A program made the position numbers and the translations under genes. Shown here in pieces: positions 11,415 through 61,977 of a DNA stretch of 64,000 nt. The stretch comes from Escherichia coli. Its GTDB lineage: Bacteria; Pseudomonadota; Gammaproteobacteria; Enterobacterales; Enterobacteriaceae. The number at the start of each line of letters is the position of its first letter. Within the stretch, counting starts at the first letter, position 1. The stretch is taken from the NCBI RefSeq assembly GCF_046105845.1, contig NZ_CP151004.1, one strand, 5' to 3'. Under the pieces are notes generated by a model, which was not told where the DNA came from, did not search any database, and saw only the letters and a program-made list of their open reading frames with translations.

Positions 11415-11598
11415 AGTGGCTCATTCACCGACTTATGTCAGCCCCTTCGGGACGTGCTACATAAAATTCGAATGACGCACAACAAGGTGCCTGCCGTCCA
11501 ACTTCTGATATCAGCGTAGCTATATCAATCATCGGGCGAAACGTCGAGTTAGGCACCGCCTTATTCCATAACAAAGCCGGGTAATTCCCGGCTTTGTT
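11415..11598 (+). ncRNA. glmY: Small RNA GlmY (activator of the GlmZ/glmS pathway)
   Basis: Sequence beginning agtggctcattcaccgacttatgtcagccccttcggg matches my recollection of GlmY; about 184 nt; ends in hairpin aaagccgggtaattcccggcttt plus a U-rich tail; lies upstream of glrK with a sigma54 promoter and GlrR-type sites. Confidence 0.8.
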
Positions 11599-40793: not shown

Positions 40794-41033
40794 TTTAACC
40801 GTCCTGTTTCGTGTTGCATCTGCGTTGACTGCACATACTCACTCTGGTCACTTACTTATGTAAGCTCCCGGAGATTCGTAAGTTTGTCAACTTGCTGAAA
40901 CCCGAAACAGTTAGGTTAAAGATAACAAGATATTAGAATCAGGCCGGGGCGTATCGCGCTCCGTAAACACGGTCGTACATCCAGCCGGTAGCCTGGTTCC
41001 TTGCATTGAGTGATGTACGGAGTTTATAGAGCA

Positions 41034-46029: not shown

Positions 46030-46245
46030 TTTCCGCGTCATGCTTCACGCCGCAGATGCGTTGGCTGCGCTCGTTCACCCCAGTCACATAGTTATCTATG
46101 CTCCTGGGGCTTCACTCACTTGCCGCGTGATTCGGCCTTTTGGCCTCACCCCTCCGGGGCCAGCGCAAGCGCTGTTCAAAACGCAATGCGTTTTGTCCTG
46201 CAACGCGAATCATTTAGCGGAAAAATCCTGGGGCTGCCAACTGGC
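46030..46245 (-). repeat. ERIC (IRU) element
   Basis: The reverse complement of 46040-46130 reads GTGAAGCCCCAGGAGCATAGATAACTATGTGACTGGGGTGAACGAGCGCAGCCAACGCATCTGCGGCGTGAAGCAT, a close match to the ERIC consensus (GTGAATCCCCAGGAGCTTACATAAGTAAGTGACTGGGGTGAGCG...) as I recall it; abuts the iscX stop. Confidence 0.65.
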
Positions 46246-47675: not shown

Positions 47676-48452
47676 ATGTCCGAAACAAAAAACGAACTTG
47701 AAGATCTGCTGAAAAAAGCAGCAATCGAACCGGCGCACCGCCCGGCCTTTTTCCGTACTCTACTGGAATCCACCGTCTGGGTGCCGGGTACGGCGGCGCA
47801 GGGCGAGGCTGTGGTTGAAGATAGCGCGCTTGATTTACAGCACTGGGAAAAAGAAGACGGCACCAGCGTCATTCCTTTTTTTACCTCGTTAGAAGCACTT
47901 CAACAGGCGGTTGAAGACGAACAGGCATTTGTCGTAATGCCCGTTCGCACATTGTTTGAGATGACCCTTGGCGAAACGCTCTTCCTTAATGCCAAACTGC
48001 CAACCGGTAAAGAATTTATGCCGCGTGAAATCAGTTTGTTGATTGGTGAAGAAGGAAATCCGCTGAGCAGCCAGGAAGTACTGGAGGGCGGTGAATCGCT
48101 GATATTATCGGAAGTCGCAGAGCCACCAGCACAAATGATTGATTCTCTCACCACCTTATTTAAAACTATTAAGCCGGTGAAGCGTGCTTTTATTTGTTCA
48201 ATTAAAGAGAACGAAGAGGCACAGCCTAATTTACTTATTGGCATTGAAGCCGATGGTGATATCGAAGAAATTATTCAGGCGGCGGGAAGTGTAGCGACCG
48301 ATACATTACCTGGCGATGAACCCATCGATATTTGTCAAGTGAAAAAAGGGGAAAAAGGAATTAGCCACTTTATTACCGAACATATTGTGCCATTCTATGA
48401 ACGTCGCTGGGGTGGTTTTTTGCGTGACTTTAAACAGAACCGGATAATCTAA
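47676..48452 (+). CDS. sseB: SseB (enhanced serine sensitivity protein B)
   Basis: MSETKNELEDLLKKAAIEPAHRPAFFRTLLESTVWVPG... (258 aa); start at ATG 47676. Confidence 0.88.
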   Translation: MSETKNELEDLLKKAAIEPAHRPAFFRTLLESTVWVPGTAAQGEAVVEDSALDLQHWEKEDGTSVIPFFTSLEALQQAVEDEQAFVVMPVRTLFEMTLGETLFLNAKLPTGKEFMPREISLLIGEEGNPLSSQEVLEGGESLILSEVAEPPAQMIDSLTTLFKTIKPVKRAFICSIKENEEAQPNLLIGIEADGDIEEIIQAAGSVATDTLPGDEPIDICQVKKGEKGISHFITEHIVPFYERRWGGFLRDFKQNRII

Positions 48453-48454
48453 AA

Positions 48455-48754
48455 TATGCCGCCCCAAAGGGCGGCATTCGGGCTTACCTGCTGTTCTGAA
48501 GGTTGTTAACCACCAATAAATTGTTGCCGGAGAGATTCCGGTTATTATTTACCTCGGTTAACAGCGCACCAGAAACAATAAGTACGATACAAAAGCACCG
48601 TATCTTCATTGTGCGGTCCATGCGAAGACCGCATCACGACAGCACCACTGGCGATATTGCCGCGATAGCAAGCGCTGAGACGCGCGTGCCCTAACGGTCG
48701 CGGAACATCCTTTCCTTAAGCCAGCGCCCGCTTGCGAGACGGCGGAAAGGTCCG
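48455..48754 (-). ncRNA. ryfA: ryfA-like transcript (about 300 nt) carrying a small hydrophobic ORF; boundaries inferred
   Basis: On the minus strand there is a -10-like TATTAT at 48766-48761 and a terminator hairpin gccgccc-tttg-gggcggc followed by atatttt ending near 48455; length and location between sseB and sseA fit what I recall of RyfA. Confidence 0.5.
48484..48609 (-). CDS. Small hydrophobic protein (41 aa; TimP-like candidate type I toxin) within the ryfA-like transcript
   Basis: Minus-strand ORF MKIRCFCIVLIVSGALLTEVNNNRNLSGNNLLVVNNLQNSR then TAA; hydrophobic N-terminal helix; in-frame alternative ATG four codons upstream (48621, giving MDRTMKIR...); below the ORF-track length cutoff. 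Confidence 0.45.
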   Translation of the reverse strand: MKIRCFCIVLIVSGALLTEVNNNRNLSGNNLLVVNNLQNSR

Positions 48755-48797
48755 CAGTGGATAATACACTAACAGAACAATAATAACTCTCTTTTGC

Positions 48798-48832: not shown

Positions 48833-48930
48833 CGCTGAGACGCGCTTGCATTACTACGGTAATACAACCTGCTGGAAAGGCCGCGAACCGGACCAGCAAC
48901 AAAAAACCGCCTGATTTTGGCGGTTTTTTG
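48833..48930 (+). ncRNA. Candidate sRNA, unit A (putative antitoxin RNA pairing with the ryfA-like mRNA)
   Basis: Predicted 5' end about 48833; ends at terminator aaaaaaccgcc-tgatttt-ggcggtttttt (48901-48929); its first 13 nt (CGCUGAGACGCGC) are perfectly complementary to the minus-strand transcript at 48673-48685. Confidence 0.45.
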
Positions 48931-49073
48931 TTGTTTAAAGAAAATGAAATTACACGTTTAAGTAATATCTTTTACCAGTTAGTATATTTTAATATTAAGC
49001 GGGATTTTTTTATATTTGTCTGAATTCGGACTGATAAGCCAAATGAATTCAAAATCTATCCTTTTTTATCTAC

Positions 49074-49108: not shown

Positions 49109-49197
49109 GACGAGATACACTTGCAGTAATACAACCTGCTGGAAAGGCCGCGAACCAGACCAGCAATAAAAAAACCGCCAAATTCGGCGGTTTTTTT
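49109..49197 (+). ncRNA. Candidate sRNA, unit B (tandem paralog of unit A with a diverged 5' region)
   Basis: The body gtaatacaacctgctggaaaggccgcgaacc-gaccagcaa is nearly identical to unit A; terminator aaaaaaaccgcc-aaattc-ggcggttttttt (49165-49197) has a different loop but a conserved stem; this terminator is also positioned to serve the convergent sseA. Confidence 0.4.
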
Positions 49198-49213: not shown

Positions 49214-50059
49214 TTATTTCAATGGCTCAACCGGTAAATCTGCCCGTGCGCCCCATTCACTCCATGCGCCGTCGTACAGTTTCACGTTTGGCACATCCAG
49301 CGTCGCGAGTGCCAACAAAACCACGGCTGCCGTTACACCAGAGCCGCAGCTGACGATAATCGGTTTGTCATAGCTGACGCCGCGACCAAAAAATATCGCA
49401 TCCAGTTCATCGGTCGTTTTTAGTTCGCCTTCGCGCACCAGTTCCGTCCACGGAACGTTCAATGCACCGGGAATATGTCCGCGACGTAAACCTGGGCGAG
49501 GTTCATCAACTTCTGCGTTAAAACGTGCAGCCGGGCGGGCATCAATAATTTGCGCCGTATTTTCATGGCTTGCCAATAACACATCGGTGACTTTCACCAC
49601 GGCTTCAGGATTAAACGTGGCGTTAAACTCTCCTTCCGGCAGCTCTACTGCCCCTTCTTCTAACAGCAGATCATCACGCTGCCAGCCTGCAAGTCCACCC
49701 CCCAGAATCGACACTTTCTCTACACCAAAGGTGCGCAGCATCCACCATGCTCGTGGGGCTGAGAATAGATTACCTTCGTCATAGATAATCAGGTGCTTAT
49801 CCTGGTTAACGCCTAATTCACGCATCGCCACGGCGAACGTTTCCGGGCGCGGCAGCATGTGCGGAAGCGGGGAAGTGTGATCAGAAAGCGCTTCGATATC
49901 AAAAAATACTGCGCCGGGAATATGTCCATTCAGATACTCCTGAGCAACGTTACGATCTTCCTGTCCAGGCGACGCCATGCGGGCATCGATAATCTGAATT
50001 TCCGGGTCATCAATATGTTCGGCGAGCCAGTCGGCTCCTACAAACCATGTCGTGGACAT
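49214..50059 (-). CDS. sseA: 3-mercaptopyruvate sulfurtransferase (tandem rhodanese domains)
   Basis: MSTTWFVGADWLAEHIDDPEIQIIDARMASPGQEDRNVAQEYLNGHIPGAVFFD... (281 aa); active-site context SCGSGVTA; start at the internal ATG 50059, not the 334-aa ORF-track start. Confidence 0.9.
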   Translation of the reverse strand: MSTTWFVGADWLAEHIDDPEIQIIDARMASPGQEDRNVAQEYLNGHIPGAVFFDIEALSDHTSPLPHMLPRPETFAVAMRELGVNQDKHLIIYDEGNLFSAPRAWWMLRTFGVEKVSILGGGLAGWQRDDLLLEEGAVELPEGEFNATFNPEAVVKVTDVLLASHENTAQIIDARPAARFNAEVDEPRPGLRRGHIPGALNVPWTELVREGELKTTDELDAIFFGRGVSYDKPIIVSCGSGVTAAVVLLALATLDVPNVKLYDGAWSEWGARADLPVEPLK

Positions 50060-50265
50060 AGGCATCTCCATTTTTGCCGGGGTTAGGCTAAATTGTCGGA
50101 TGTTTAGTGAAAGGCGACAAGCAAAAGAGGCTGATTTGGCTGTCTGAGCCACAATTCTCACTAAAATTCGGATTGTATGGGCGTGATACTGAATTACATA
50201 ACGTAAATTCTCACGCATAATAATTATTCGACGTTGCTAACGGGCCATTGTGGCAGGGATGAAAA

Positions 50266-53200
50266 ATGAAAAAGTTACGCGTAGCCGCCTGCATACTAAT
50301 GCTGGCGCTGGCAGGGTGCGACAACAACGATAACGCGCCAACAGCGGTGAAAAAAGATGCGCCTTCTGAAGTTACTAAAGCGGCCTCTTCAGAAAACGTG
50401 AGTTCAGCAAAACTTTCCGCGCCGGAGCGACAAAAACTGGCCCAACAGAGTGCCGGTAAGGCGCTGACATTGCTGGATCTCTCTGAAGTTCAACTTGATG
50501 GCGCAGCCACGCTGGTGCTGACGTTCTCCATTCCTCTCGACCCGGATCAGGATTTCTCACGCGTTATCCATGTCGTCGATAAGAAAATCGGCAAAGTGGA
50601 TGGTGCCTGGGAGCTGTCAGATAATCTTAAAGAGTTGCGTTTACGCCACCTCGAACCGAAACGTGATTTGATCGTCACTATTGGCAAGGAGGTCAAAGCA
50701 CTCAACAACGCAACCTTCAGTAAAGATTACGAAAAAACTATAACTACCCGCGATATCCAACCCAGCGTAGGTTTTGCCAGCCGTGGCTCGTTGTTACCTG
50801 GTAAAGTTATTGAAGGGCTGCCGGTAATGGCGCTCAACGTTAACAATGTCGATGTTAACTTCTTCCGTGTGAAGCCCGAATCTCTGCCTGCATTCATTAG
50901 CCAATGGGAATACCGCAATTCGCTGGCGAACTGGCAGTCTGACAAACTGCTGCAGATGGCGGATCTGGTCTACACCGGACGGTTTGATCTCAATCCTGCG
51001 CGTAACACCCGTGAAAAATTATTGCTGCCGCTGGGCGATATCAAACCGCTTCAGCAGGCAGGCGTGTATCTGGCTGTGATGAATCAGGCTGGACGTTACG
51101 ATTACAGTAATCCCGCGACGCTGTTTACGTTAAGTGATATCGGCGTTTCAGCTCACCGTTATCACAATCGTCTGGATATCTTTACCCAAAGTCTGGAAAA
51201 CGGCGCGGCCCAGCAAGGAATAGAAGTCTCTTTATTAAATGAGAAAGGGCAGACTCTGACTCAGGCAACCAGTGATGCTCAGGGGCATGTGCAGCTGGAA
51301 AATGATAAAAATGCGGCATTACTGCTGGCGCGTAAAGACGGTCAGACAACGCTACTCGATTTAAAACTTCCGGCGCTGGACTTAGCAGAATTTAACATTG
51401 CTGGCGCGCCAGGCTATAGCAAACAGTTTTTCATGTTTGGCCCGCGCGATCTTTATCGCCCAGGTGAAACAGTCATCCTCAATGGTTTATTGCGTGATGC
51501 AGATGGTAAAGCATTGCCCGATCAACCCATCAAGTTAGACGTGATTAAACCCGACGGGCAGGTACTCAGGAGCGTCGTTAGTCAGCCGGAGAATGGCCTC
51601 TACCACTTTACCTGGCCACTCGATAGCAATGCGGCAACCGGTATGTGGCATATTCGCGCTAACACGGGCGATAACCAGTATCGGATGTGGGATTTCCACG
51701 TCGAAGATTTTATGCCAGAGCGCATGGCGCTGAATCTGACCGGTGAGAAAACCCCGCTAACGCCGAAAGATGAAGTGAAATTCTCCGTGGTGGGGTACTA
51801 CCTGTATGGTGCACCTGCTAATGGTAATACTTTGCAAGGGCAACTTTTCCTGCGCCCACTGCGTGAAGCTGTGTCAGCCTTACCTGGTTTTCAATTCGGC
51901 GATATAGCTGCCGAAAATCTTTCCCGCACGCTGGATGAAGTTCAGTTGACGCTGGATGATAAAGGGCGTGGCGAAGTTTCTACAGAAACCCAGTGGAAGG
52001 AAACGCATTCCCCATTACAGGTTATTTTCCAGGGTAGTTTGCTGGAATCGGGCGGTCGCCCGGTGACGCGCCGCGCTGAGCAGGCTATCTGGCCTGCCGA
52101 TGCATTGCCGGGGATCCGTCCGCAGTTCGCCTCGAAATCGGTTTACGATTATCGCACTGACAGCACGGTGAAACAGCCCATTGTTGATGAAGGCAGTAAC
52201 GCCGCTTTTGACATCGTTTATAGCGATGCGCAAGGCGTAAAAAAAGCCGTGTCGGGCTTGCAGGTGCGCCTGATTCGCGAACGCCGCGATTACTACTGGA
52301 ACTGGTCAGAAGATGAAGGCTGGCAGTCACAGTTTGATCAAAAAGATCTGATTGAAAATGAACAAACTCTGGATCTTCAGGCGGATGAAACCGGTAAGGT
52401 CAGTTTCCCGGTAGAGTGGGGCGCTTATCGTCTGGAAGTCAAAGCGCCGAATGAAGCGGTCAGTAGTGTGCGTTTCTGGGCTGGCTATAGCTGGCAGGAC
52501 AACAGCGACGGGAGCGGTGCCGTGCGACCTGACCGTGTCACGCTGAAACTGGATAAAGCCAGTTATCGCCCTGGCGATACCATTAAGTTGCATATTGCCG
52601 CGCCAACGGCGGGTAAAGGTTATGCGATGGTCGAGTCCAGTGAAGGGCCGCTGTGGTGGCAAGAGATTGATGTTCCGGCTCAAGGGCTGGATCTGACGAT
52701 TCCGGTCGATAAAACCTGGAATCGTCATGATCTGTATTTAAGTACGCTGGTGGTACGTCCTGGCGATAAATCTCGCTCCGCGACGCCAAAACGTGCGGTT
52801 GGGGTGTTGCATCTGCCGCTTGGTGATGAAAACCGTCGCCTCGATCTGGCGCTGGAAACCCCCACCAAAATGCGCCCCAATCAGCCATTAACCGTGAAAA
52901 TTAAAGCCAGCAATAAAAACGGTGAGATGCCAAAACAGGTGAATGTGCTGGTGTCTGCCGTTGATAGCGGTGTGCTGAATATTACTGATTACGTTACCCC
53001 CGATCCGTGGCAGGCGTTCTTTGGTCAGAAACGCTATGGTGCAGACATTTACGATATTTACGGTCAGGTCATTGAAGGTCAGGGGCGTCTGGCAGCTCTG
53101 CGTTTTGGTGGCGATGGTGATGAGCTGAAACGTGGTGGTAAACCGCCGGTCAATCACGTCAATATTGTCGCGCAGCAGGCGCTGCCGGTAACGCTCAACG

Positions 53201-55227
53201 AACAGGGTGAAGGCTCGGTTACACTGCCGATTGGCGATTTTAACGGTGAATTGCGCGTCATGGCGCAAGCCTGGACGGCAGATGACTTCGGTAGCAACGA
53301 AAGGAAAGTGATAGTTGCCGCACCGGTGATTGCTGAACTGAACATGCCGCGTTTTATGGCGAGTGGCGATACCTCGCGCCTGACGCTGGATATCACTAAT
53401 CTTACCGATAAACCGCAAAAACTAAACGTTGCCCTGACCGCCAGTGGTTTGCTTGAACTGGTCAGCGATTCACCCGCAGCCGTTGAATTAGCGCCAGGCG
53501 TACGTACTACGCTGTTTATCCCGGTGCGAGCATTGCAAGGTTATGGCGATGGAGAAATTCAGGCCTCCATTAGTGGGTTAGCGTTACCAGGTGAAACCGT
53601 TGCCGACCAGCATAAGCAGTGGAAAATCGGCGTCCGTCCAGCGTTCCCGGCACAAACGGTTAATTACGGTACGGCGTTGCAGCCTGGTGAAACCTGGGCG
53701 CTCCCGGCGGATGGATTGCAAAACTTCTCGCCTGTTACGCTGCAAGGTCAGCTATTGTTGAGCGGCAAACCACCGCTGAACATCGCACGTTATATCAAAG
53801 AGTTAAAAGCGTATCCGTACGGCTGTCTCGAGCAAACCGCCAGCGGCCTGTTCCCGTCACTTTATACCAACGCAGCCCAACTGCAGTCGTTGGGCATCAA
53901 AGGCGACAGTGATGAGAAACGCCGTGCATCGGTCGATATCGGTATTTCCCGTTTGCTGCAAATGCAACGTGATAACGGCGGCTTTGCGCTGTGGGATAAA
54001 AACGGTGACGAAGAGTACTGGCTGACGGCTTACGTGATGGATTTCCTGGTCCGCGCAGGCGAACAGGGTTACAGCGTGCCGACAGACGCCATTAACCGGG
54101 GTAATGAGCGTCTGCTGCGCTATTTACAAGATCCGGGCATGATGTCGATCCCGTACGCGGATAATCTCAAAGCCAGTAAATTCGCCGTACAGTCTTACGC
54201 TGCGCTGGTGTTGGCCCGTCAGCAAAAGGCACCGCTGGGTGCGCTGCGTGAAATCTGGGAGCATCGTGCAGATGCCGCTTCTGGTTTACCGCTGCTGCAA
54301 CTTGGCGTTGCGCTGAAAACCATGGGTGATGCGACGCGTGGTGAAGAAGCAATTGCGTTGGCGCTGAAAACGCCGCGTAATAGTGATGAGCGGATATGGC
54401 TGGGTGATTACGGTAGTCCACTGCGCGACAACGCGTTGATGCTCTCCTTGCTGGAAGAAAATAAACTGCTACCCGATGAGCAGAACACTTTGCTGAACAC
54501 GCTTTCGCAGCAGGCATTTGGTGAACGCTGGCTATCGACCCAGGAAAGTAACGCGTTGTTCCTGGCTGCCCGTACGGTTCAGGATTTACCCGGTAAATGG
54601 CAGGCGCAAACCTCTTTCTCAGCTGAGCCGCTGACAGGCGAGAAAGCGCAAAACAGTAATCTGAATAGCGATCAACTTGCTACCTTACAGGTGACCAACA
54701 GTGGCGATCAGCCGTTATGGCTGCGTGTGGATGCCAGCGGTTATCCTCAATCCGCACCTTTACCGGCGAACAATGTGCTGCAAATCGAGCGTCATATTCT
54801 TGGTACTGATGGTAAGAGCAAATCGCTGGACTCGTTACGTAGCGGCGATCTGGTGCTGGTCTGGTTGCAGGTAAAAGCCAGTAACAGCGTGCCGGATGCG
54901 TTAGTCGTGGATCTGCTGCCTGCGGGTCTGGAACTGGAAAACCAGAATCTGGCGAACGGTAGCGCCAGCCTGGAGCAAAGTTGTGGCGAAGTGCAGAACT
55001 TACTGAACCAGATGCAGCAGGCGAGTATTAAGCACATTGAGTTCCGTGACGATCGCTTTGTGGCGGCGGTTGCCGTTGATGAATACCAACCGGTAACGCT
55101 GGTGTATCTGGCGCGGGCGGTGACGCCGGGAACGTATCAGGTGCCGCAGCCTATGGTGGAATCGATGTATGTTCCCCAATGGCGGGCGACCGGCGCGGCT
55201 GAAGATTTGCTGATTGTCAGACCGTAA
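50266..55227 (+). CDS. yfhM: Alpha-2-macroglobulin family lipoprotein
   Basis: 1653 aa; lipoprotein signal MKKLRVAACILMLALAGCDNN (lipobox LAGC); thioester motif CLEQ present (AYPYGCLEQTASG); immediately followed by pbpC. Confidence 0.93.
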   Translation: MKKLRVAACILMLALAGCDNNDNAPTAVKKDAPSEVTKAASSENVSSAKLSAPERQKLAQQSAGKALTLLDLSEVQLDGAATLVLTFSIPLDPDQDFSRVIHVVDKKIGKVDGAWELSDNLKELRLRHLEPKRDLIVTIGKEVKALNNATFSKDYEKTITTRDIQPSVGFASRGSLLPGKVIEGLPVMALNVNNVDVNFFRVKPESLPAFISQWEYRNSLANWQSDKLLQMADLVYTGRFDLNPARNTREKLLLPLGDIKPLQQAGVYLAVMNQAGRYDYSNPATLFTLSDIGVSAHRYHNRLDIFTQSLENGAAQQGIEVSLLNEKGQTLTQATSDAQGHVQLENDKNAALLLARKDGQTTLLDLKLPALDLAEFNIAGAPGYSKQFFMFGPRDLYRPGETVILNGLLRDADGKALPDQPIKLDVIKPDGQVLRSVVSQPENGLYHFTWPLDSNAATGMWHIRANTGDNQYRMWDFHVEDFMPERMALNLTGEKTPLTPKDEVKFSVVGYYLYGAPANGNTLQGQLFLRPLREAVSALPGFQFGDIAAENLSRTLDEVQLTLDDKGRGEVSTETQWKETHSPLQVIFQGSLLESGGRPVTRRAEQAIWPADALPGIRPQFASKSVYDYRTDSTVKQPIVDEGSNAAFDIVYSDAQGVKKAVSGLQVRLIRERRDYYWNWSEDEGWQSQFDQKDLIENEQTLDLQADETGKVSFPVEWGAYRLEVKAPNEAVSSVRFWAGYSWQDNSDGSGAVRPDRVTLKLDKASYRPGDTIKLHIAAPTAGKGYAMVESSEGPLWWQEIDVPAQGLDLTIPVDKTWNRHDLYLSTLVVRPGDKSRSATPKRAVGVLHLPLGDENRRLDLALETPTKMRPNQPLTVKIKASNKNGEMPKQVNVLVSAVDSGVLNITDYVTPDPWQAFFGQKRYGADIYDIYGQVIEGQGRLAALRFGGDGDELKRGGKPPVNHVNIVAQQALPVTLNEQGEGSVTLPIGDFNGELRVMAQAWTADDFGSNERKVIVAAPVIAELNMPRFMASGDTSRLTLDITNLTDKPQKLNVALTASGLLELVSDSPAAVELAPGVRTTLFIPVRALQGYGDGEIQASISGLALPGETVADQHKQWKIGVRPAFPAQTVNYGTALQPGETWALPADGLQNFSPVTLQGQLLLSGKPPLNIARYIKELKAYPYGCLEQTASGLFPSLYTNAAQLQSLGIKGDSDEKRRASVDIGISRLLQMQRDNGGFALWDKNGDEEYWLTAYVMDFLVRAGEQGYSVPTDAINRGNERLLRYLQDPGMMSIPYADNLKASKFAVQSYAALVLARQQKAPLGALREIWEHRADAASGLPLLQLGVALKTMGDATRGEEAIALALKTPRNSDERIWLGDYGSPLRDNALMLSLLEENKLLPDEQNTLLNTLSQQAFGERWLSTQESNALFLAARTVQDLPGKWQAQTSFSAEPLTGEKAQNSNLNSDQLATLQVTNSGDQPLWLRVDASGYPQSAPLPANNVLQIERHILGTDGKSKSLDSLRSGDLVLVWLQVKASNSVPDALVVDLLPAGLELENQNLANGSASLEQSCGEVQNLLNQMQQASIKHIEFRDDRFVAAVAVDEYQPVTLVYLARAVTPGTYQVPQPMVESMYVPQWRATGAAEDLLIVRP

Positions 55228-57540
55228 ATGCCTCGCCAGTTAACAAAACGCGGCTGCTGGATAATGCTGGCAGCTGCGCCCTTTCTCCTTTTTCTTGCAG
55301 CGTGGGGAGCTGATAAACTCTGGCCTCTACCGCTGCATGAAGTCAATCCCGCACGCGTGGTTGTGGCTCAGGATGGGACGCCGCTCTGGCGCTTTGCCGA
55401 TGCGGACGGCATCTGGCGTTATCCGGTAACAATCGAAGATGTTTCTCCACGTTACCTTGAAGCGCTGATCAATTATGAAGATCGCTGGTTCTGGAAGCAT
55501 CCGGGGGTGAATCCATTCTCGGTGGCGCGCGCAGCATGGCAAGATCTCACTTCGGGAAGAGTTATTTCCGGTGGCAGCACGCTCACTATGCAGGTTGCTC
55601 GTCTGCTTGATCCTCACCCCAAAACATTTGGCGGCAAAATTCGCCAGCTCTGGCGCGCGTTGCAACTGGAGTGGCATCTGTCTAAGCGTGAAATTCTGAC
55701 CTTGTATCTTAACCGCGCTCCGTTTGGCGGTACGTTGCAGGGGATCGGTGCGGCAAGTTGGGCTTATCTCGGAAAATCGCCTGCGAATTTAAGCTATTCC
55801 GAGGCGGCAATGCTGGCGGTGTTGCCGCAAGCGCCCAGCCGACTACGCCCGGATCGCTGGCCGGAACGTGCCGAAGCCGCGCGTAATAAAGTTCTCGAAC
55901 GGATGGCCGTGCAAGGTGTGTGGTCCCGTGAGCAGGTAAAAGAGTCAAGGGAAGAACCCATCTGGCTGGCACCCCGACAAATGCCGCAATTGGCACCGCT
56001 GTTTTCGCGCATGATGCTCGGTAAAAGCAAAAGCGACAAAATCGTTACTACGCTGGATGCCGGTCTTCAACGACGTCTGGAAGAACTGGCGCAAAACTGG
56101 AAAGGACGATTACCACCGCGCAGCTCACTGGCGATGATCGTGGTTGATCATACCGATATGCGTGTTCGCGGCTGGGTGGGTTCGGTTGATCTCAACGATG
56201 ATTCACGCTTTGGTCATGTTGATATGGTCAATGCGATCCGATCGCCAGGATCGGTGCTCAAACCATTTGTTTATGGTCTGGCGCTGGATGAAGGCTTGAT
56301 CCACCCGGCATCACTGCTGCAAGACGTTCCCCGGCGCACCGGTGATTATCGACCAGGTAACTTTGATAGCGGTTTTCATGGCCCGATCAGCATGAGCGAG
56401 GCGCTGGTGCGCTCGCTGAATTTACCTGCTGTGCAGGTGCTGGAAGCCTATGGACCGAAACGGTTTGCGGCAAAATTACGCAATGTTGGATTGCCGTTGT
56501 ATCTGCCCAACGGCGCTGCGCCGAATCTTTCGCTCATTCTCGGCGGCGCTGGTGCAAAACTGGAAGATATGGCGGCAGCGTATACCGCGTTTGCTCGCCA
56601 CGGCAAGGCAGGCAAATTGCGCTTACAGCCGGGCGATCCGCTGCTTGAACGGCCTTTAATGTCGTCGGGGGCTGCGTGGATCATTCGCCGGATTATGGCT
56701 GATGAAGCGCAACCCTTGCCGGATGGTGCCTTGCCGCGCGTCGCCCCACTGGCATGGAAAACGGGCACCAGCTATGGCTATCGTGATGCCTGGGCGATTG
56801 GGGTTAACGCTCGCTATGTCATTGGGATCTGGACTGGCAGACCGGACGGCACGCCCGTTGTTGGTCAGTTTGGCTTTGCCAGCGCCGTACCATTGTTGAA
56901 TCAGGTTAATAATATCTTACTGTCGCGCAGTGCGAATCTGCCGGAAGACCCACGTCCTGACTCTGTAAGTCGTGGCGTTATCTGCTGGCCGGGCGGACAG
57001 TCTTTGCCGGAAGGTGACGGTAACTGCCGCCGCCGCCTGGCAACCTGGCTGCTGGACGGGAGTCAGCCGCCAACTCTATTACTGCCGGAGCAGGAAGGCA
57101 TTAATGGCATTCGTTTCCCCATCTGGCTGGATGAAAACGGCAAACGTGTTGCCGCTGATTGCCCTCAGGCGCGACAAGAAATGATAAATGTCTGGCCGCT
57201 ACCGCTGGAACCCTGGTTGCCCGCATCAGAACGCCGCGCTGTGCGCTTACCACCGGCCTCGACAATTTGCCCGCCATACGGTCACGATGCACAACTCCCG
57301 CTGCAGCTGACAGGCGTGCGCGATGGCGCGATTATTAAACGCTTACCGGGTGCAGCGGAAGCGACTTTGCCGTTGCAATCAAGTGGAGGGGCAGGTGAAC
57401 GCTGGTGGTTTCTGAATGGCGAACCGTTAACTGAACGCGGGCGCAACGTGACCCTGCATTTGATGGATAAAGGCGATTATCAATTGCTGGTGATGGATGA
57501 GGTGGGGCAAATCGCGACAGTGAAATTTGTCATGCAATAG
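55228..57540 (+). CDS. pbpC: Penicillin-binding protein 1C (class A, transglycosylase plus transpeptidase)
   Basis: 770 aa; N-terminal membrane anchor MPRQLTKRGCWIMLAAAPFLLFLAA; glycosyltransferase-family-51 motifs; transpeptidase-like C-domain; ATG directly abuts the yfhM stop. Confidence 0.93.
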   Translation: MPRQLTKRGCWIMLAAAPFLLFLAAWGADKLWPLPLHEVNPARVVVAQDGTPLWRFADADGIWRYPVTIEDVSPRYLEALINYEDRWFWKHPGVNPFSVARAAWQDLTSGRVISGGSTLTMQVARLLDPHPKTFGGKIRQLWRALQLEWHLSKREILTLYLNRAPFGGTLQGIGAASWAYLGKSPANLSYSEAAMLAVLPQAPSRLRPDRWPERAEAARNKVLERMAVQGVWSREQVKESREEPIWLAPRQMPQLAPLFSRMMLGKSKSDKIVTTLDAGLQRRLEELAQNWKGRLPPRSSLAMIVVDHTDMRVRGWVGSVDLNDDSRFGHVDMVNAIRSPGSVLKPFVYGLALDEGLIHPASLLQDVPRRTGDYRPGNFDSGFHGPISMSEALVRSLNLPAVQVLEAYGPKRFAAKLRNVGLPLYLPNGAAPNLSLILGGAGAKLEDMAAAYTAFARHGKAGKLRLQPGDPLLERPLMSSGAAWIIRRIMADEAQPLPDGALPRVAPLAWKTGTSYGYRDAWAIGVNARYVIGIWTGRPDGTPVVGQFGFASAVPLLNQVNNILLSRSANLPEDPRPDSVSRGVICWPGGQSLPEGDGNCRRRLATWLLDGSQPPTLLLPEQEGINGIRFPIWLDENGKRVAADCPQARQEMINVWPLPLEPWLPASERRAVRLPPASTICPPYGHDAQLPLQLTGVRDGAIIKRLPGAAEATLPLQSSGGAGERWWFLNGEPLTERGRNVTLHLMDKGDYQLLVMDEVGQIATVKFVMQ

Positions 57541-57688
57541 TCTGTTTTGTCCCTGATTGTTGCTTAAACTAGGTTTATTTTAAAAAAATGTTACCTTCAT
57601 CAATAGTCAACGGCCCTGTTGCTCATTATAATCCGCGCCATCTCGTACGCTGGTACAGACAACAACAGAACAATTTACAGAGGTAAAA

Positions 57689-58120
57689 ATGGCTATTGAA
57701 CGTACTTTTTCCATCATCAAACCGAACGCGGTAGCAAAAAACGTCATTGGTAATATCTTTGCGCGCTTTGAAGCTGCAGGGTTCAAAATTGTCGGCACCA
57801 AAATGCTGCACCTGACCGTTGAACAGGCTCGTGGCTTTTATGCTGAACACGATGGAAAACCGTTCTTTGATGGTCTGGTTGAATTCATGACCTCTGGCCC
57901 GATCGTGGTTTCCGTGCTGGAAGGTGAAAACGCCGTTCAGCGTCACCGCGATCTGCTGGGCGCGACCAATCCGGCAAATGCACTGGCCGGTACTCTGCGC
58001 GCTGATTACGCTGACAGCCTGACCGAAAACGGTACCCACGGTTCTGATTCCGTCGAATCTGCCGCTCGCGAAATCGCTTATTTCTTCGGCGAAGGCGAAG
58101 TGTGCCCGCGCACCCGTTAA
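57689..58120 (+). CDS. ndk: Nucleoside diphosphate kinase
   Basis: 143 aa [36 protein letters not shown]... with active-site NGTHGSDS. Confidence 0.96.
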
Positions 58121-60748: not shown

Positions 60749-61867
60749 ATGCATAACCAGGCTCCAATTCAACGTAGAAAATCAACACGTATTTACGTTG
60801 GGAATGTGCCGATTGGCGATGGTGCTCCCATCGCCGTACAGTCCATGACCAATACGCGCACGACAGACGTCGAAGCAACGGTCAATCAAATCAAGGCGTT
60901 GGAACGTGTTGGCGCTGATATCGTCCGTGTCTCCGTACCGACGATGGACGCGGCAGAAGCGTTCAAACTCATCAAACAGCAGGTTAACGTGCCGCTGGTG
61001 GCTGACATCCATTTCGACTATCGCATTGCGCTGAAAGTAGCGGAATACGGCGTCGATTGTCTGCGTATTAACCCTGGCAATATCGGTAATGAAGAGCGTA
61101 TTCGCATGGTGGTTGACTGTGCGCGCGATAAAAACATTCCGATCCGTATTGGCGTTAACGCCGGATCGCTGGAAAAAGATCTGCAAGAAAAGTATGGCGA
61201 ACCGACGCCGCAGGCGTTGCTGGAATCCGCCATGCGTCATGTTGATCATCTCGATCGCCTGAACTTCGATCAGTTCAAAGTCAGCGTGAAAGCGTCAGAC
61301 GTCTTCCTCGCTGTTGAGTCTTATCGTTTGCTGGCAAAACAGATCGATCAGCCGCTGCATCTGGGGATCACCGAAGCGGGTGGTGCGCGCAGCGGGGCGG
61401 TTAAATCCGCCATTGGTTTAGGTCTGCTGCTGTCTGAAGGCATCGGCGACACGCTGCGCGTATCGCTGGCGGCCGATCCGGTCGAAGAGATCAAAGTCGG
61501 TTTCGATATTTTGAAATCGCTGCGTATCCGTTCGCGAGGGATCAACTTCATCGCCTGCCCGACCTGTTCGCGTCAGGAATTTGATGTTATCGGTACGGTT
61601 AACGCGCTGGAGCAACGCCTGGAAGATATCATCACTCCAATGGACGTTTCGATTATCGGCTGCGTGGTGAATGGCCCAGGTGAGGCGCTGGTTTCTACAC
61701 TCGGCGTCACCGGCGGCAACAAGAAAAGCGGCCTCTATGAAGATGGCGTGCGCAAAGACCGTCTGGACAACAACGATATGATCGACCAGCTGGAAGCACG
61801 CATTCGTGCGAAAGCCAGTCAGCTGGACGAAGCGCGTCGAATTGACGTTCAGCAGGTTGAAAAATAA
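60749..61867 (+). CDS. ispG: 4-hydroxy-3-methylbut-2-en-1-yl diphosphate synthase
   Basis: 372 aa [36 protein letters not shown]... with cluster cysteines (FIACPTCSR ... GCVVNGPGE). Confidence 0.96.
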
Positions 61868-61977
61868 TAACGTGATGGGAAGCGCCTCGCTTCCCGTGTA
61901 TGATTGAACCCGCATGGCTCCCGAAACATTGAGGGAAGCGTTGAGGGTTCATTTTTATATTCAGAAAGAGAATAAAC

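Follow-up and report, generated by a model that had tools for sequence, protein, structure and literature searches.

The yfhM-pbpC operon in an Escherichia coli chromosome: a thioester alpha-2-macroglobulin gene directly followed by the gene for penicillin-binding protein 1C

The yfhM-pbpC gene pair was analyzed in a stretch of 64,000 nucleotides from Escherichia coli (NCBI RefSeq assembly GCF_046105845.1, contig NZ_CP151004.1), the whole of which is called the window here. The pair forms a core operon of E. coli and is intact and ordinary here. The gene yfhM (50266..55227, + strand) encodes a type I (thioester) bacterial alpha-2-macroglobulin (A2M) of 1653 aa, the K-12 version of which is ECAM, and was assigned from the list of open reading frames (ORFs), Pfam, PDB matches and the E. 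coli annotation. The gene pbpC (55228..57540, + strand) encodes the 770-aa penicillin-binding protein (PBP) 1C, a class A PBP, assigned from NCBIfam equivalogs and Pfam. Taken as a whole, the region is very probably best explained as a core operon in which YfhM is an inner-membrane protease trap and PBP1C is likely coupled to it, with a proposed joint role in damage control. Gene identity, domain architecture, thioester chemistry, in vitro trapping and genomic linkage were established partly here and partly in the literature. An initial annotation of the window had named both genes, and the names were borne out by the Pfam models, the solved-structure matches and the NCBIfam equivalogs.

Identity and conservation of the gene pair

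The gene neighbourhood, sseA facing yfhM-pbpC-ndk-rlmN, matched the chromosomal position in K-12, and the wider K-12 order was also retained, with hscA-fdx-iscX-pepB-sseB-ryfA/timP-sseA on one side and yfhM-pbpC-ndk-rlmN-rodZ-ispG-hisS on the other. The pair was single-copy and always chromosomal in 5425 of 5426 complete E. coli genomes, where the genes were annotated as yfhM (alpha2-macroglobulin) and pbpC, and at least 80% of the pair was retained in 5423 of the 5426. A second copy was considered, as a wider query matched 5805 places in 5425 genomes, and was rejected. The two genes alone gave exactly one place per genome, and the extra matches therefore came from short flanks. Losses of pbpC by natural deletion were very rare in E. 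coli. For instance, in E. coli NCTC9100 (locus L084, NZ_LR134239.1 1233678-1239970), yfhM was intact, pbpC and ndk were cleanly deleted, and rlmN lay directly after yfhM.

Compared with K-12, yfhM was 97.1% identical at the DNA level with 29 amino-acid changes (98.2% protein identity), and pbpC was 97.0% identical at the DNA level with 11 amino-acid changes. The dN/dS values between the window and K-12 were 0.075 for yfhM and 0.067 for pbpC, with a dS of about 0.10 like that of the neighbouring genes, which indicated that both genes are under purifying selection. The best complete E. coli genome over the pair was at most 98.8% identical, and the flanks were similarly distant (98.4-99.4%). An unusual allele was rejected on these grounds, together with the dS shared with the neighbours. 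Since the flanks were as distant as the pair itself, the strain belongs to a lineage poorly represented in the complete-genome collection and does not carry an odd allele. The pair is already known and structurally characterized, and the allele in the window was without distinctive features.

The thioester alpha-2-macroglobulin YfhM

All of the Pfam domains bMG1, bMG2, bMG3, MG2, bMG5, bMG6, BRD, A2M, TED, CUB and bMG10 were found in YfhM above the gathering cut-off and in the expected order, so that the architecture of a type I A2M (MG1-MG10, bait-region domain, TED and CUB) was complete. In addition, YfhM aligned over its full length with the E. coli structures 4RTD, 4ZIQ and 5A42 at E = 0, and also with the Salmonella structure 4U48. 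Chance was excluded as an explanation because 11 models of the A2M family exceeded their cut-offs and the YfhM structure alignments ran from end to end at E = 0. A search of YfhM (50266-55224) against NCBIfam gave no model at E <= 1e-5, whereas PbpC matched two equivalogs. The CLEQ motif, the lipobox and the adjacent pbpC identify the protein in the window as a type I A2M. Class 1 bacterial A2Ms have been described by the same three features, namely a lipobox, a CLEQ thioester and an adjacent pbpC (PMC3735191, PMC5764988).

The lipoprotein signal peptide (50266..50319, + strand) was read as MKKLRVAACILMLALAGC followed by DNND, with the lipobox L-A-G-C18 and Asp19 at position +2, under a rule of the PROSITE PS51257 type. 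The segment MKKLRVAACILMLALAG-C18 passed this PROSITE-like rule, which places the lipidated Cys at residue 18, and the 1653-aa protein with a lipoprotein signal that had been claimed at the outset was thus found as described. An Asp at +2 of a lipoprotein leads to its retention in the inner membrane by Lol sorting. On account of this Asp, YfhM in the window would be retained at the inner membrane. ECAM has been found to be anchored in the inner membrane (PMC4498604). Among the full-length distant thioester homologues (P0121-P0270), a PROSITE-like lipobox was present in only 47 of 114, and only 7 of these 47 had Asp at +2. Many of the lipobox-less homologues appeared to carry ordinary signal peptides, although miscalled starts may inflate that number. 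Lipid anchoring was therefore typical, not universal, in the thioester A2M class, because the lipobox was found in only 47 of the 114.

Between the lipid anchor and MG1 lay a low-complexity tether of residues 19-58 (50320..50439, + strand), the Pfam match of bMG1 beginning at residue 59. In an alignment of 32 sequences, the N-terminal tether (residues 19-60) was the most gap-rich and least conserved segment of YfhM. The Pfam A2M_BRD match covered residues 759-905, and the core of the bait region, Arg923-Leu942 (53032..53091, + strand), was placed by the residues that are disordered in the elastase-cleaved structure of ECAM (PMC4498604). This core was identical to that of K-12, and residues 889-968, which include it, as well as the thioester motif, had no change relative to K-12. 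Furthermore, the mean conservation among 32 type I A2Ms was 0.54 in the bait core and 0.50 in the protein overall, with a conserved LRFGGD motif just beyond the core. A hypervariable bait, as expected from animal A2Ms, was rejected, since the bait was conserved about as well as the protein average.

The thioester motif Cys1187-Leu-Glu-Gln1190 (53824..53835, + strand) was located by translation and by alignment with K-12. It lies within YPYGCLEQT in the translated segment KAYPYGCLEQTASG, so that the intact CLEQ reported by the initial annotation was found at residues 1187-1190. The residues P1184, Y1185, G1186, C1187, E1189, Q1190, M1634 and Y1635 were invariant in 32 homologues of 35-56% identity. 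Met1634-Tyr1635 (55165..55170, + strand), in the C-terminal MG domain (CTMG), belong to the pocket that shields the thioester, as seen from the alignment and PMC4498604, and M1634, Y1635 and Y1185 were all present in YfhM. In the uncleaved native A2M of Salmonella, Met1634 of the CTMG lies in a hydrophobic pocket, which is its normal position (PMC4498604).

The retention of CxEQ was assessed on a representative set obtained with HMMER, which is the unbiased evidence on this question. The query was YfhM residues 960-1653, the target comprised 1.84 billion cluster representatives, and the 114 full-length sequences were drawn from the top 150 of 10,645 homologues at E <= 1e-3. An earlier homologue search gave near relatives only, mainly from Citrobacter, and was not used for diversity. 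In the full-length distant representatives, CxEQ stood at the TED position in 114 of 114, as CLEQ in 91, CAEQ in 8, CIEQ in 6, CTEQ in 4, CVEQ in 3 and CSEQ in 2. Loss of CLEQ with retained linkage to pbpC, which had been put forward as an outcome that would contradict the annotation, was seen in no locus or homologue examined.

The chemistry of the thioester has been studied in the K-12 protein. Methylamine, chymotrypsin and elastase all react with ECAM, which undergoes a conformational change (PMC3328433), and Cys1187 and Gln1190 are exposed in the elastase-cleaved structure (PMC4498604). As established partly in the literature, cleavage of the bait separates the domain that bears the thioester from the C-terminal MG domain, and covalent capture of the protease follows. 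Moreover, E. coli A2M with engineered baits has served as a laboratory reagent that captures proteases covalently through surface lysines (PMC9918453). A functional thioester, in terms of reaction with methylamine and protease capture, is thus known for the K-12 protein (98.2% identity) and is predicted for the allele in the window. One of the substitutions, G1573C (window 54982-54984), replaces the Gly of K-12 by Cys and adds an extra cysteine to the C-terminal MG domain.

The protein in the window was compared with known macroglobulins. ECAM (K-12 YfhM, b2520; 4RTD, 4ZIQ, 5A42) has the same genomic position, length of 1653 aa, lipobox, bait, CLEQ residues and junction, and differs by the 29 substitutions, including G1573C. 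The A2M of Salmonella enterica (SaA2M; 4U48, 4U4J, 4U59) likewise belongs to the type I thioester A2Ms, shares the domain order of YfhM and aligned over residues 18-1653. It is 82% identical to ECAM (PMC4498604), but it is the orthologue of another genus, and its structures represent the native locked state, whereas 4RTD represents protease-cleaved ECAM. The type II A2Ms, such as MagD of P. aeruginosa and YfaS of E. coli, share the macroglobulin fold, the bait, the periplasmic location and the association with the inner membrane (PMC3735191, PMC5764988). However, they lack CxEQ and the lipobox cysteine, belong to a six-gene mag-type operon and are not found by pbpC, while YfhM has the motif, the cysteine and the neighbouring pbpC, that is, all three features (PMC3735191). 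Human alpha-2-macroglobulin and complement C3 share the MG, TED and CUB domains, the CxEQ thioester and a conformational change triggered by bait cleavage. Their similarity to YfhM was remote, with E of about 1e-6 over a single MG domain, and the identity is 12% (PMC4498604). Unlike them, the bacterial protein is a monomer with a lipid anchor and carries two additional MG domains at its N-terminus.

PBP1C, genomic linkage and the junction

PbpC scored 1564.6 bits against NF008414 (cut-off 1121) and 914.1 bits against TIGR02073 (cut-off 494.2), and its Pfam domains were Transgly (61-226), Transpeptidase (330-519) and BiPBP_C (687-767). The N-terminal membrane anchor, residues 9-28 (55252..55311, + strand), contained the most hydrophobic 19-mer, CWIMLAAAPFLLFLAAWGA, with a mean Kyte-Doolittle value of 1.93, in agreement with the single transmembrane anchor described for PBP1C (PMC3328433). 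In the comparison with 68 orthologues, the GT51 motif 1, EDRWFWKHPG (55477..55506, + strand), matched EDxxFxxHxG with the catalytic Glu84, and E84 and D85 were invariant. The transpeptidase motifs SVLK (342-345), SLN (396-398) and KTG (511-513), which correspond to SxxK, SxN and KTG (56251..56766, + strand), were conserved in every orthologue with a residue at those columns.

PbpC thus has the first Glu (motif 1) of a canonical GT51 enzyme and lacks the second, in motif 3, where the variant GKIRQ (residues 136-140, 55633..55647, + strand) has Gln140 in place of the second conserved Glu of RKxxE. All five of the solved GT51 sequences aligned have Glu opposite Gln140, and the Gln was invariant in 68 of 68 PbpC orthologues. 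The substitution is a trait of the whole PbpC family and not of the allele in the window. A limited literature search found no published account of it in PBP1C, although one may still exist. PbpC resembled PBP1A and PBP1B in GT51 motif 1 (Glu84), in motif 2 and in the transpeptidase SxxK, SxN and KTG. It differed from them in scoring far below their equivalog cut-offs, in its extra BiPBP_C domain and in Gln140 for Glu. The Gln suggests that PBP1C may have a chemistry or regulation unlike that of PBP1A and PBP1B. It has been reported that PBP1C cannot replace PBP1A and PBP1B (PMC7554673).

The linkage of the two genes was examined by a scan with one genome per species, which gave 76 loci, all from Gammaproteobacteria, 70 of them evaluable for the position of pbpC. 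As one of the two scan patterns was the thioester motif, this set was informative for linkage only and not for the retention of CxEQ. The gene pbpC lay by the thioester A2M gene on the same strand in 67 of the 70 loci, and gene order and strand, with pbpC downstream, were kept in 66. The distance was 12 nt or less in 22 loci, 13-250 nt in 16, 251-1000 nt in 26 and more than 1 kb in 2; pbpC lay upstream on the same strand in 1 locus, and in 3 loci (L045, L058 and L068) no pbpC was found in the sequence available. In addition, three of four metagenomic relatives (33-42% identity) had a gene with Transgly, Transpeptidase and BiPBP_C immediately downstream, at 152, 10 and 21 nt. The co-occurrence of yfhM and pbpC across genomes, proposed earlier as a check, was therefore found in 67 of the 70 loci and in three of the four distant relatives.

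At the junction (55225..55230, + strand; CCG TAA ATG CCT), the yfhM stop codon at 55225-55227 abutted the pbpC start codon at 55228-55230 with a gap of 0 nt and in the same frame, exactly as first annotated, and the TAA-ATG of K-12 was identical. The pairing of the 16S 3' end (anti-Shine-Dalgarno, anti-SD) with the 20 nt upstream had an energy of +0.4 kcal/mol for pbpC, compared with -6.0 for yfhM, -7.1 for ndk and -7.4 for ispG. The value for pbpC was weaker than at 94% of the sampled positions within yfhM, which indicated that pbpC has no Shine-Dalgarno sequence (SD). The Escherichia and Citrobacter loci shared the gap of 0 nt, and in 15 further loci, most of them from Enterobacteriaceae and including the genera Enterobacter, Kluyvera, Pseudocitrobacter, Phytobacter and Pluralibacter, a single nucleotide separated the two genes. 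Altogether, a gap of 0-1 nt without an SD was found in 20 loci, nearly all of Enterobacteriaceae and many with a GTG start. The anti-SD energies at the related junctions ranged from +0.6 to -1.7, except for the distant locus L072 at -6.1. The tight junction is lineage-specific. Because yfhM and pbpC are in the same frame with one TAA between them, readthrough of the stop codon would yield a fusion of 2424 residues; such a fusion is probably incidental, since the orthologues with a 1-nt gap are out of frame.

Translational coupling was the most economical reading of this junction, because an abutting stop and start without an SD is the classical geometry of termination-reinitiation. The ribosomes that translate pbpC would most likely be those that have just finished yfhM and terminated at its TAA, so that PBP1C synthesis would be confined to the times and places of YfhM synthesis. 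The exported YfhM would be lipidated on Cys18 and held at the outer face of the inner membrane by a flexible tether of roughly 40 residues. Judging from their sequences, the anchor and the variable tether would place the trap near the membrane, where PBP1C would sit by means of its N-terminal helix. An endopeptidase that reaches the periplasm would cut the bait of monomeric YfhM around residues 923-942, causing a rearrangement that exposes the buried Cys1187-Gln1190 thioester. The thioester would then react with a lysine of the protease and tether it covalently. PBP1C, as a membrane-anchored class A PBP, could polymerise glycan strands. If the outer membrane is breached, the trap might thus neutralize incoming proteases while PBP1C might patch the peptidoglycan. 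We infer the coupling, as well as the joint function and the targets in nature.

The trap-plus-repair hypothesis named in the initial annotation is the one attributed to Budd 2004, as that work is cited in PMC3328433, PMC4498604, PMC5764988 and PMC7554673. The same four papers also treat the physiological role as poorly defined. Three of its four suggested checks, namely methylamine sensitivity, protease trapping and co-occurrence, are already published (PMC3328433, PMC4498604, PMC3735191), and for this reason the finding opens nothing new. Likewise, it adds nothing to existing knowledge, because it re-identifies a characterized and solved protein and a linkage published in 2004. The targets of YfhM in living cells and the reason for its accompanying dedicated class A PBP are a real gap in envelope biology, to which the window offers no new route. 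There were small by-products, namely a tight junction without an SD that was almost confined to Enterobacteriaceae in this sample, a universally kept thioester, and the deviation of PbpC from the GT51 pattern.

Several points weigh against a coupled pair with a joint function. The abutting codons, the SD-less start and the 0-1 nt gaps in 20 loci fit the coupling proposed in the initial annotation, but the dependence of pbpC translation on yfhM translation is a point that we infer from the junction. Looser junctions were found elsewhere, of 50-60 nt in Yersinia, Photorhabdus and Serratia, and of 430-740 nt with an opposite-strand ORF in Pseudomonas. The pair in Pseudomonas cannot be translationally coupled because of that spacer, and a joint function needs no coupling, because the tight junction is not general. 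A thioester A2M occurred without pbpC in the three loci named above, as did yfhM in NCTC9100. The polymerase activity of PbpC may be unusual because of the Gln at the second conserved GT51 Glu position. Furthermore, under standard laboratory conditions no role is known for PBP1C (PMC7554673), its first reported phenotype required overproduction (PMC6131605), and no in vivo phenotype links YfhM and PBP1C. In addition, a peak of genomic SELEX with RpoE holoenzyme lies inside yfhM, upstream of pbpC, at K-12 coordinate 2649866 (PMC5493296), and could mark an internal pbpC promoter.

The SELEX peak also bears on the view that the two genes are co-transcribed without translational coupling, pbpC being initiated independently by a non-SD or standby mechanism or from a promoter inside yfhM, and the abutment reflecting genome compaction. 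Other genes of the window also lacked a recognizable SD (rodZ, for example, at +0.4 kcal/mol), and the junction spacing differed widely between genera, both of which are consistent with independent initiation. However, the SD-less gap of 0-1 nt was kept in 20 loci despite surrounding divergence, weak GTG starts were frequent there, and a scan for the sigma-E consensus (GGAACTT-N15-17-TCAAA, at least 10 of 12 matches) over 50000-57700 gave no site. Independent initiation is consequently rather unlikely, and coupling was preferred. As for the targets, it is possible, though this is held only tentatively, that the pair acts on proteases delivered by competitors or on self periplasmic proteases, and not on host proteases in infection. 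Many Gammaproteobacteria from the environment or associated with plants carry the linked pair, as do metagenomic lineages without an obvious animal host, and inter-bacterial competition has been raised in previous studies (PMC3328433, PMC5764988). The average-like conservation of the bait is also unlike that of a broad, fast-evolving bait. On the other hand, the in vitro work was done with mammalian proteases such as elastase and chymotrypsin, and these are trapped efficiently.

A quite improbable alternative is that YfhM serves as a regulator or activator of PBP1C, similar to the Lpo proteins, and that cleavage of the trap switches on a dedicated peptidoglycan synthase. The linkage in nearly every locus examined is consistent with it, the extra BiPBP_C domain and the invariant Gln could make PbpC activator-dependent, and a direct interaction through the C-terminus of ECAM has been proposed (PMC3328433). 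However, some genomes carry one partner without the other. Membranes overproducing PBP1C reportedly polymerised murein without added YfhM in the work of Schiffer and Holtje from 1999, which counts against an activator. It is very improbable that PBP1C is not a stand-alone polymerase at all and depends on the macroglobulin, being switched on, for example, by the shape change after YfhM cleavage. Such a dependence could exist because the Gln occurs in every PbpC examined and the adjacency to a thioester A2M is nearly constant; if so, the pair would be a protease-sensing switch for cell-wall repair, with a parallel in the Lpo proteins that activate PBP1A and PBP1B. That the adjacency is a functionally meaningless accident of history is hardly credible. 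A joint phenotype is not known, which would suit an accident, but order and strand were kept in 66 of 70 loci and also in lineages whose A2Ms are 33-42% identical and whose neighbourhoods are quite different, and this reading is already disfavoured.

Flanking signals and other features of the window

The divergent intergenic region between sseA and yfhM (50060..50265, 206 nt), which is presumed to hold the yfhM promoter and SD, differed from K-12 by 1 base, and sseA ended at the start equivalent to that in K-12. A promoter-like site was found by consensus match only at 50193-50221, upstream of yfhM. In the pbpC-ndk intergenic region (57541..57688, + strand), a consensus scan alone gave a promoter-like site at 57604-57632 that agreed with the consensus at 10 of 12 positions, and the consensus scan found no terminator-like hairpin on the + strand between pbpC and ndk.

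The spacer of the Pseudomonas loci (L025 12758-13275, with equivalents in about 20 loci, L026-L071) contained a conserved, strongly hydrophobic ORF of 97 aa on the opposite strand, MQVESFFEWLGQALG..., and a Pfam search of this ORF matched no family.

The segment 48451-49202 contained the ryfA RNA (48451-48755, - strand) and the IS128 RNA (48887-49065, - strand). A direct repeat of 71 nt (48859-48929 and 49126-49196) was 87% identical between its copies, each of which ended in a bidirectional terminator-like hairpin. In MEW, the closest strain, timP was present in three tandem copies, compared with one in the window and in K-12. For the segment 40000-49200, the number of matching places in an E. 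coli genome had a median of 12 and a maximum of 34, and the places included 25 on plasmids; because of these many matches, the segment must hold a short dispersed repeat. No tRNA genes were found in the window. The other RNA features, all from Rfam, were the ohsC antitoxin RNA (2169-2233, - strand), GlmY (11415-11562, + strand), the iscRS stability element (40923-41032, + strand), SroE (61867-61958, + strand) and a marginal match to Aggregatibacter sRNA 22 (46131-46203, - strand), with 45.3 bits against a gathering score of 39.8.

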